A stretch of 64,000 nucleotides of DNA. It comes from Escherichia phage NHEP10. The stretch lies in the sequence record PQ511148.1, one strand, 5' to 3'. Below the pieces are notes generated by a model. That model was not told the origin of the DNA, did no database searches, and saw only the letters and a program-made list of their open reading frames with translations. The position numbers and the translations under genes were made by a program. How positions within the stretch are numbered: position 1 is the stretch's first letter; the number at the start of each line of letters is the position of its first letter. Below are positions 6,995 to 8,095 of this stretch, one piece after another.

Positions 6995-8095
6995 TTACGC
7001 TGTGAAGATTTTATCCCACATCGCAACAACTGCATCTCGATTATACTTCTTCCATACTGCTTCAGCACGTTTAACTCGAGCTTCGTATGTGTCAGTGAAT
7101 TCTAATACAGCTTTTGTGTAAAGCGCAACTACTTCTTTCTTAGGAGTAGAGGAATCAATTTCTACACGCACAGTATCTGGGTCGTATTCGAATGTCGCAT
7201 GAGGATAATCCTTAAAAACTAACTGGATTACAGGGACACCTTTAGAGATGGCTTCAATAGAACTATTCTCTACCGTACCTGTGTCAGGACACGTATTAAT
7301 AAGCGCTTTAGCTGTTTTAAGACGTTCCATGATTTCACTGTGTGGAGCATCAATAATAACAGGATATTTAGCTGGTGGTGCCCATTTACTAGGACAGTAT
7401 CCTACACCATTTTCGCCTAGTGCTTTAATCGCTTCAAGAGCAACATCAGTACGACGCATTTTAGTGTCATAACGTTGTGCACTAATAATCAGATCAGTCG
7501 CCGGAAGAACTTCAGGTTTCTCATTCAAACAAATAACCGGATAATCTTCGGCTTCAAACAACGGATTTGCTCGCCAATAATCGTAATCAATTTTGTCAGT
7601 CAGACCTGAAGTCATATAACAATATTTGCGTTCAAATTCACGGAAGGCTTTAGTAGGAGCATAACTCTTACCGCCATTCTTATGAATTTGAATAGTCTGG
7701 TCCCAAATTTGAACAATGCCACGAGATACCGGTTCAAATGGTGTTGCCATAAAATTCTTATGAACTTTAGAGAGACCTGCGTCTTTAATTGCCTGAACGG
7801 TTAGTTTAGTCGGTTCCATAGTAACAACAAAATCGTATTCATGGATGCCGGCTAGTTCAACAATCTTACGAGCCATAGTATAACTCATACCTAGACTGAA
7901 TTTAGTCAGATGACCAACAGGATGGTGCGTAACTTTCCAGTCACCAAACATGTCATTATCAAAGCCGATATAATCAATATCAGCACCGATGGACACAAGA
8001 TATTTCAACACATTTAAATGTACTGCTTCAAGACCACCTTGTACACGGTCAGGATTAAATGGGACTGCGCGAGATGGGATAAACATAACTTTCAT
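6995..8095 (-). CDS. putative glycosyltransferase (GT-B fold, GT4-like)
   Basis: 366 aa; N-terminal MKVMFIP...PDRVQGGLEAVHLNVLKYL and C-terminal ENSSIEAISKGVPVI resemble GT-B glycosyltransferase motifs; occupies the interval where T4 has gene 60/mobA. Confidence 0.55.
   Translation of the reverse strand: MKVMFIPSRAVPFNPDRVQGGLEAVHLNVLKYLVSIGADIDYIGFDNDMFGDWKVTHHPVGHLTKFSLGMSYTMARKIVELAGIHEYDFVVTMEPTKLTVQAIKDAGLSKVHKNFMATPFEPVSRGIVQIWDQTIQIHKNGGKSYAPTKAFREFERKYCYMTSGLTDKIDYDYWRANPLFEAEDYPVICLNEKPEVLPATDLIISAQRYDTKMRRTDVALEAIKALGENGVGYCPSKWAPPAKYPVIIDAPHSEIMERLKTAKALINTCPDTGTVENSSIEAISKGVPVIQLVFKDYPHATFEYDPDTVRVEIDSSTPKKEVVALYTKAVLEFTDTYEARVKRAEAVWKKYNRDAVVAMWDKIFTA

Follow-up and report, generated by a model that had tools for sequence, protein, structure and literature searches.

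What is the function of the 366-residue protein encoded at 6995..8095 in a 64,000-nucleotide stretch of the genome of Escherichia phage NHEP10 (PQ511148.1; "the window" denotes this whole stretch), at a place where phage T4 carries genes 60, 60.1, and mobA? An original prediction had read the gene as a GT-B-like glycosyltransferase (GT) and had named the product a candidate DNA glycosyltransferase, possibly attaching a pentose to 5-hydroxymethylcytosine (hmC) or adding further sugar units. We conclude, with a probability of roughly 0.8, that the protein is the Mosigvirus second-step, post-replicative DNA arabinofuranosyltransferase (RB69 ORF003c, gp3, or "Aat"). Our own evidence is the identity with ORF003c and with a protein in the Protein Data Bank (PDB), a GT-B fold, the accompanying pathway genes, and the distribution of the gene among phages. 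Published work supplies the chemistry of the RB69 base, the in vitro activity of homologs from Acinetobacter phage DLP3, and the phenotype of an aat deletion in phage Bas46.

The window is part of a Mosigvirus (RB69-like) genome, and the 1.8-kb region around the GT gene (6600-8400) is 98-99% identical to many Mosigvirus coliphages, with Escherichia phage NHEP11 as the top match (99.0%). The gene appears in the list of open reading frames (ORFs) of the window as a single ORF with an ATG start, the product of which starts MKVMFIPSRAVPFNPDRVQGGLE and includes GTVENSSIEAISKGVPVIQ. This product is identical at 362 of 366 positions to RB69p003 (i.e., RB69 ORF003c/gp3; NP_861693.1), at 359 of 366 to Bas47_0105 of phage Bas47 (MZ501047), and at 362 of 366 to the protein deposited as PDB 9iqz and 9ir0 (released 2025-07-16), the titles of which read "phage HY126 glycosyltransferase" and "... 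with UDP" for the apo and the uridine diphosphate (UDP) forms, respectively. With 98-99% identity over all 366 residues, the same locus, and the same genus, the RB69, Bas47, and HY126 proteins are the same protein as the one in the window, from which they differ by 4-7 substitutions, none at a family-invariant position; the title of 9ir0 would imply that the window protein binds UDP. PHROG 8302 ("unknown function") matches residues 1-366 of 366 (E 4.5e-222), and because of this match, conservation in 155 phage records, and the 99%-identical solved structure, the ORF is not a chance frame. The gene is thus already known: it was singled out in 2018, was annotated by the BASEL authors, and has a proposed role, a reported deletion phenotype, and deposited structures. 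Its labels in GenBank and RefSeq are inconsistent. Most records call it "hypothetical protein," the HX01 RefSeq record and several Acinetobacter phages "DNA alpha-glucosyltransferase," 308Ecol101PP [quoted passage not shown] and Bas47 "putative hmC-arabinosyltransferase."

A comparison of the predicted structure with GT-B enzymes, one of the checks put forward with the original prediction, points to a GT-B fold. In an AlphaFold2 model computed from a shallow alignment of 6 sequences, strands and helices alternate in both halves of the protein, as predicted for two Rossmann-like domains with an interdomain cleft, and a Foldseek comparison with 9ir0/9iqz gives a template modeling (TM) score of 0.73. 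The same search returned 215 PDB matches at E<=0.001, the best 50 of which are all GT-B enzymes; after 9ir0/9iqz, the next matches are PimA, WaaG, BshA, MshA, LmbT, and tetrahydrobiopterin glucosyltransferases (E 1e-9 to 1e-7, 12-15% identity). Judged from the model, the fold of the 366-residue protein is GT-B, and the lack of such a fold, named beforehand as a refuting outcome for the original prediction, did not occur. The residues that are invariant in the family down to 35% identity are G20, G21, R125, G142, Q207, R208, D210, R214, E276, E281, H299, E303, and D305; among them are two hallmarks of GT-B enzymes, a glutamate in the C-terminal domain for the donor ribose (E281) and an N-terminal glycine loop (G20-G21). 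In a published alignment, G20, an arginine at ∼207, and E281 correspond to the donor-binding residues G15, R204, and E311 of T4 alpha-gt (Thomas et al., 2018; PMC6024577). Together with the identity to RB69 ORF003c and the likeness to GT4 enzymes, this fold upholds the view of the protein as a candidate DNA glycosyltransferase.

The acceptor named in the original prediction has to be changed. Between uvsX and the DNA polymerase gene, at 28129..34676, the window holds a pathway cluster composed of a kinase, a 299-residue GT, a 5-hydroxy-deoxycytidine monophosphate (5-hydroxy-dCMP) synthase, a U32-like protein, a gp51-type phosphatase, an NTP-transferase/kinase, and a SIS isomerase (Table 1). 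RB69 gp48, a ThyA homolog, has been shown experimentally to make 5-hydroxy-dCMP (PMC13326640), and the ThyA-like protein of the window (238 residues) is identical to it at 237 of 238 positions; the phage base is therefore 5-hydroxycytosine, not hmC. In RB69 itself, the cytosines carry β-D-arabinofuranosyl (Araf)-(1→3)-α-D-Araf ether-linked to 5-hydroxycytosine rather than to hmC, the sugar being bonded directly to C5-O (Lee et al., 2026, NAR; PMC13326640), and the same authors propose that gp46:47 is the first transferase and that gp3 (ORF003c) is "beta-arabinosyltransferase 2." The gp46:47 homolog, the 299-residue cluster GT, directly adjoins the 5-hydroxy-dCMP synthase gene in every genome examined. 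It is intact in the window and split into RB69p046 and RB69p047 in the RB69 reference; at the level of sequence, the intact ORF supports the published account of that split as a sequencing error (PMC13326640). A Pfam scan of the cluster GT gave no match, and a BLASTP comparison between the 366-residue and 299-residue GTs found no detectable similarity (E 3.1), so the former did not arise from the latter by recent duplication. As for the sugar supply, the phosphatase homolog is identical to RB69p051 at 127 of 128 positions, the 32174..33859 protein matches Pfam NTP_transferase in its N-terminal part and, weakly, kinases in its C-terminal part, and the isomerase gene adjoins the DNA polymerase gene, in the same position as RB69p055. 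The 366-residue GT thus co-occurs with a 5-hydroxy-dCMP synthase, UDP-arabinofuranose genes, and a first GT, the combination that we take as a mark of its family.

Which of the two arabinose transfers the 366-residue GT is likely to carry out is indicated by its distribution. By tblastn, the 299-residue cluster GT is found in 348 phage records, with hosts that include Escherichia, Acinetobacter, Klebsiella, Shigella, Serratia, Enterobacter, Proteus, Yersinia, Kosakonia, Salmonella, and others, whereas the 366-residue GT is found in only 211. Mosigvirus-type records with one copy at >=95% amino-acid identity make up 155 of these 211, Acinetobacter phages with homologs of ∼42% identity (in two places in each among the matches listed) make up 55, and a single Tegunavirus record completes the set. 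No Serratia record is among the 211 matches, and in Serratia phage 92A1 the cluster GT lies beside the ThyA homolog and a second GT was not found in the surrounding 17-kb stretch. Phage DLP3 has two homologs inside its cluster, beside the kinase gene (gp77, 43% identity; gp76, 40%). In those phages for which the DNA has been analysed, 0, 1, and 2 copies of the family go with 1, 2, and 3 arabinoses: LC53 is mono-arabinosylated, RB69, Bas46, Bas47, and NP are di-arabinosylated, and DLP3 is tri-arabinosylated, the double arabinose of Bas46 and Bas47 and the single one of LC53 being reported by papers that cite Mahler et al. (2025, Cell Host Microbe). Copy number hence tracks arabinose number, which is the pattern expected of a chain-extending enzyme and not of a first transferase. 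Of the two activities originally suggested, attachment of the first pentose is accordingly unlikely, since the 299-residue GT is common to all arabinosylating groups found and the 366-residue GT is confined to the di- and tri-arabinose groups; addition of further sugar units is the best current reading, on the strength of this pattern and of the activity of the DLP3 homologs.

That activity has been seen in vitro: supplied with UDP-Araf, the combination of DLP3 gp76 and gp77 attaches another arabinose to RB69 DNA (PMC13326640). As to function in the phage, deletion of the arabinosyltransferase Aat from Bas46 makes it sensitive to a plasmid-borne defence, according to papers that cite Mahler et al. 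(2025). Phage HY126, its Afh proteins, and crystal structures are the subject of He et al. (2026, Nat Chem Biol), from whose work 9iqz/9ir0 probably stem. A broader proposal would be that this GT-B clade is a DNA glycosyltransferase specialised in chain extension, with the number of gene copies determining how long the glycan on 5-hydroxycytosine becomes, that residues 115-188 are a new module recognising the DNA-borne sugar, and that Mosigviruses acquired the gene separately from the core cluster; we put this forward only tentatively, and much of it is probably already covered by Mahler et al. (2025) and He et al. (2026).

The earliest role proposed for ORF003c was a different one. Thomas et al. 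(2018; PMC6024577) reported arabinose in RB69 DNA and, from hidden Markov model (HMM)/HHpred and Phyre2 comparisons, proposed ORF003c as a GT-B arabinosyltransferase, which would make the 366-residue GT the first, base-proximal enzyme that puts arabinose on the modified cytosine. The similarity of ORF003c to both T4 alpha-gt and GT4 enzymes speaks for this, as did its standing as the sole GT then recognised in RB69, a standing that it owed to the split of gp46/gp47 in the reference record. We nevertheless consider a first-step role improbable: the gene is missing from all Serratia records among the matches, including those of the host group of mono-arabinosylated LC53, which retain the cluster GT; it is the cluster GT that sits next to the 5-hydroxy-dCMP synthase; and the DLP3 homologs work on DNA that is already arabinosylated (PMC13326640).

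Two further possibilities concern the acceptor. Were the second arabinose added to a free nucleotide or precursor before incorporation, the polymerase would need to accept bulky di-arabinosyl deoxynucleoside triphosphates; in the T-even precedent, T4 alpha-gt and beta-gt glycosylate DNA after replication. Since, moreover, purified RB69 DNA serves the DLP3 homologs as a substrate for chain extension (PMC13326640), transfer before incorporation seems very improbable. Still less do we expect a non-DNA acceptor such as a host envelope lipid, lipopolysaccharide (LPS), or protein, as for PimA and WaaG, even though the top non-self Foldseek matches act on lipids and LPS and one public record is labelled a phosphatidylinositol mannosyltransferase. 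The PimA/WaaG-type matches have only 12-15% identity, and the likeness is therefore at the level of the fold only; the gene is confined to phages with the arabinosyl-5-hydroxycytosine pathway and in DLP3 lies inside that cluster; and its homologs modify DNA in vitro (PMC13326640).

For the second-step DNA arabinofuranosyltransferase, the following sequence of events can be envisaged. The ThyA-like synthase would provide 5-hydroxy-dCMP in place of dCMP, and the cluster isomerase, kinase/pyrophosphorylase, and phosphatase would convert ribulose-5-phosphate to UDP-D-arabinofuranose. The 299-residue GT would then transfer α-D-Araf to O5 of 5-hydroxycytosine. UDP-Araf would dock in the interdomain cleft of the 366-residue GT, with likely donor contacts from the G20-G21 loop, from R208/R214 to the diphosphate, and from E281 to the ribose, and this GT would join a second, β-linked D-Araf to O3 of the sugar already present on the DNA. 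The result would be β-D-Araf-(1→3)-α-D-Araf-5-O-dC, as in RB69-type virions, and with the extra sugar the phage may be shielded from a wider range of host nucleases and defence systems. The homologs and the distribution of the protein suggest that it is the one responsible for the second transfer, and the residue roles and stereochemical course are likewise presumed.

Several points weigh against this reading. The role of RB69 gp3 is explicitly just a proposal in PMC13326640, and in the same work DLP3 gp76 or gp77 alone was inactive. The equation of "Aat" with the 6995..8095 gene is presumed from the latter being the sole other GT reported in Mosigvirus. The GT4-like neighbours would point to a retaining enzyme, but the choice between retention and inversion for a β-linked product hinges on the anomer of UDP-Araf. 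The structural model is of moderate confidence (mean predicted local distance difference test [pLDDT] score 65.8), with residues 115-188 below 50 (25-44). Finally, scans of the protein against Pfam and NCBIfam, i.e., the profile search against glycosyltransferase families that had been suggested as a check, gave zero matches at E<=1.

The last point also bears on family membership. The original prediction had noted GT4-like motifs at both ends of the protein; the GT4-type structural neighbours agree with this, but a Pfam match is lacking, and the canonical EX7E is absent: the sequence E276-N-S-S-I-E281 is an EX4E, and residue 273, where the first glutamate would be expected, is an invariant glycine. 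The sequence models for the CAZy GT4 family in Pfam, Glycos_transf_1 and Glyco_trans_4, did not match the protein above threshold. When phmmer and a family profile were run against PDB sequences, only the self-match to 9iqz/9ir0 was found, with no bridge to other GTs. A word-indexed homolog search gave 5 clusters, and an exhaustive HMMER profile search of 1.84 billion representative proteins (a library clustered at 50% identity) gave 11 at E<=0.001, one of them borderline; on these 11, Pfam produced only sub-threshold GT4-like matches (GT4-conflict, Glyco_trans_1_4), in divergent members. By sequence, then, the family is very small and isolated, and because of the Pfam/NCBIfam null result, the sparse profile searches, and the sub-threshold matches, sequence does not establish GT4 membership; the likeness of the protein to GT4 enzymes is a structural one. 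Residues 115-188 are modeled with low confidence, yet they are dense in invariants (T118, P119, R125, W131, H138, G141, G142, K143, P147, T148, and F151), many of them basic or aromatic, which makes the segment a candidate for the acceptor (DNA-sugar) site.

The features of the locus and of the pathway cluster are collected in Table 1.

Table 1. Positions of the glycosyltransferase gene, its flanking elements, and the pathway genes in the window
Feature	Position	Strand	Assignment and basis
366-residue GT-B glycosyltransferase	6995..8095	-	RB69 ORF003c/gp3 ortholog, probable Aat-type second DNA arabinosyltransferase; identity and fold
AAGG ribosome-binding site (Shine-Dalgarno)	8103..8106	-	7 nt 5' of the ATG at 8095; putative, from sequence
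7-bp perfect hairpin with UUCG loop, AAGCUCCUUCGGGAGCUU	8122..8139	-	Scan for terminator-like elements, sequence, and centroid fold
Unsplit topoisomerase gene 39, 605 residues	8138-9955	-	HATPase_c, DNA_gyraseB, Toprim, and C-terminal domain
299-residue cluster GT	28678..29577	-	RB69 gp46:47 homolog, proposed first, base-proximal arabinosyltransferase (role per PMC13326640)
Thymidylate-synthase-like 5-hydroxy-dCMP synthase	29577..30293	-	Makes the acceptor base; Pfam Thymidylat_synt and RB69 gp48 identity
389-residue peptidase-U32-like protein	30571-31740	-	RB69 gp50 homolog; mid-cluster
HAD-like small phosphatase homolog	31788..32189	-	RB69 gp51/HY126 AfhF; UDP-arabinofuranose supply (role per PMC13326640)
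Bifunctional NTP-transferase/kinase	32174..33859	-	RB69 gp52:53/HY126 AfhE; makes UDP-D-arabinofuranose, the presumed donor (PMC13326640)
SIS-domain arabinose-5-phosphate isomerase	34041..34676	-	RB69 gp55 homolog, sugar-pathway entry; Pfam SIS domain

The GT gene indeed lies between rIIA.1 and gene 39, as originally described. Downstream (at lower coordinates) are a 66-residue ORF matching Pfam T4_RIIA1 (E 2e-30) and then rIIA (737 residues), and upstream (at higher coordinates) is a gyrase-B/Toprim protein, the unsplit gene 39 product; because gene 39 is unsplit, the phage lacks the 39/60 split, the gene 60 translational bypass, and the mobA of T4. The order rIIA.1, GT, gene 39 is identical in the window, RB69, Bas47, and Shigella phage JK45. 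The hairpin in the gap between the topoisomerase and GT genes overlaps the stop codon of the former and stands 27 nt ahead of the GT start codon; it may be a terminator-like or an mRNA-stability element. The intergenic RNA as a whole folds no better than shuffled sequences (z -0.82), its centroid fold retaining the 7-bp stem, and for this reason just the local hairpin is reported. A similar GC-rich UUCG hairpin is found at 10005-10020. A sigma-70 promoter scan around the GT gene gave 7 sites, fewer than the 11.8 in shuffles, so no promoter is claimed, and across the window no tRNAs and no Rfam families were found.

In JK45 (MK962757, 1501-3104), the full-length GT gene is followed by a 136-residue ORF, residues 7-136 of which repeat the C-terminal 130 residues of the window GT with 100% identity. 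The 3' third of the GT gene is thus duplicated in tandem, together with the downstream spacer, either genuinely or as an assembly artefact; the taxonomy line of the record reads Tequatrovirus, yet the GT locus is Mosigvirus-like. In the pathway cluster, the U32-like protein also has a counterpart within the cluster of Serratia phage 92A1, and RB69 gp50 has been tabled, as a guess, as a "sugar or heterocycle reductase" (PMC13326640).

Which of the restriction, CRISPR, and glycosylase defences a phage escapes depends on how its DNA is hypermodified, and such modification thereby bears on phage therapy and phage engineering. The 366-residue GT would be one determinant of that escape, by lengthening the sugar on every cytosine. 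For the window, the practical value lies in the right annotation of the gene, with the acceptor amended from hmC to 5-hydroxycytosine.

Among known enzymes, the bacterial retaining GT4 enzymes PimA, WaaG, BshA, and MshA are the closest structural neighbours. An N-terminal glycine-rich loop, a C-terminal E...EA(x)3G(x)PV motif, and an Arg-x5-Arg/Lys pair are features that we take the phage protein to share with them; it differs in its low sequence identity to them (12-15%), the missing Pfam match, E276-x4-E281 in place of EX7E, and DNA as the acceptor. The T4 enzymes alpha-gt (GT72) and beta-gt (GT63) resemble it in being GT-B enzymes that use a UDP-sugar donor and act on a modified cytosine after replication, against restriction. 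They transfer from UDP-glucose to the hydroxymethyl group of hmC, whereas UDP-Araf as donor and the sugar on 5-hydroxycytosine as acceptor are proposed for the window GT. T4 alpha-gt sits between genes 47 and 55 and the window GT elsewhere; between 47 (43789..44808) and 55 (45796..46371) the window has only ORFs of <=107 residues and no alpha-gt-like gene, as originally stated. We rejected a T4-style alpha-gt or beta-gt assignment, given this difference in position and the fact that phmmer and hmmsearch of the PDB retrieved no T4 GT chain, and likewise a T4-type hmC glucosyltransferase, the base enzyme of the window being a 5-hydroxy-dCMP synthase homolog and not a gp42-type dCMP hydroxymethylase. 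For ORF003c, the published HHpred match to 1XV5 has E 1.9e-24 (PMC6024577). DLP3 gp77 and gp76 (beta-arabinosyltransferases 2 and 3) are full-length homologs with the same invariant residues, and in vitro they act on arabinosylated 5-hydroxycytosine DNA with UDP-Araf; in DLP3 they are tandem paralogs within the cluster, both needed for the third arabinose, whereas the window has a single copy, ∼20 kb from the cluster.

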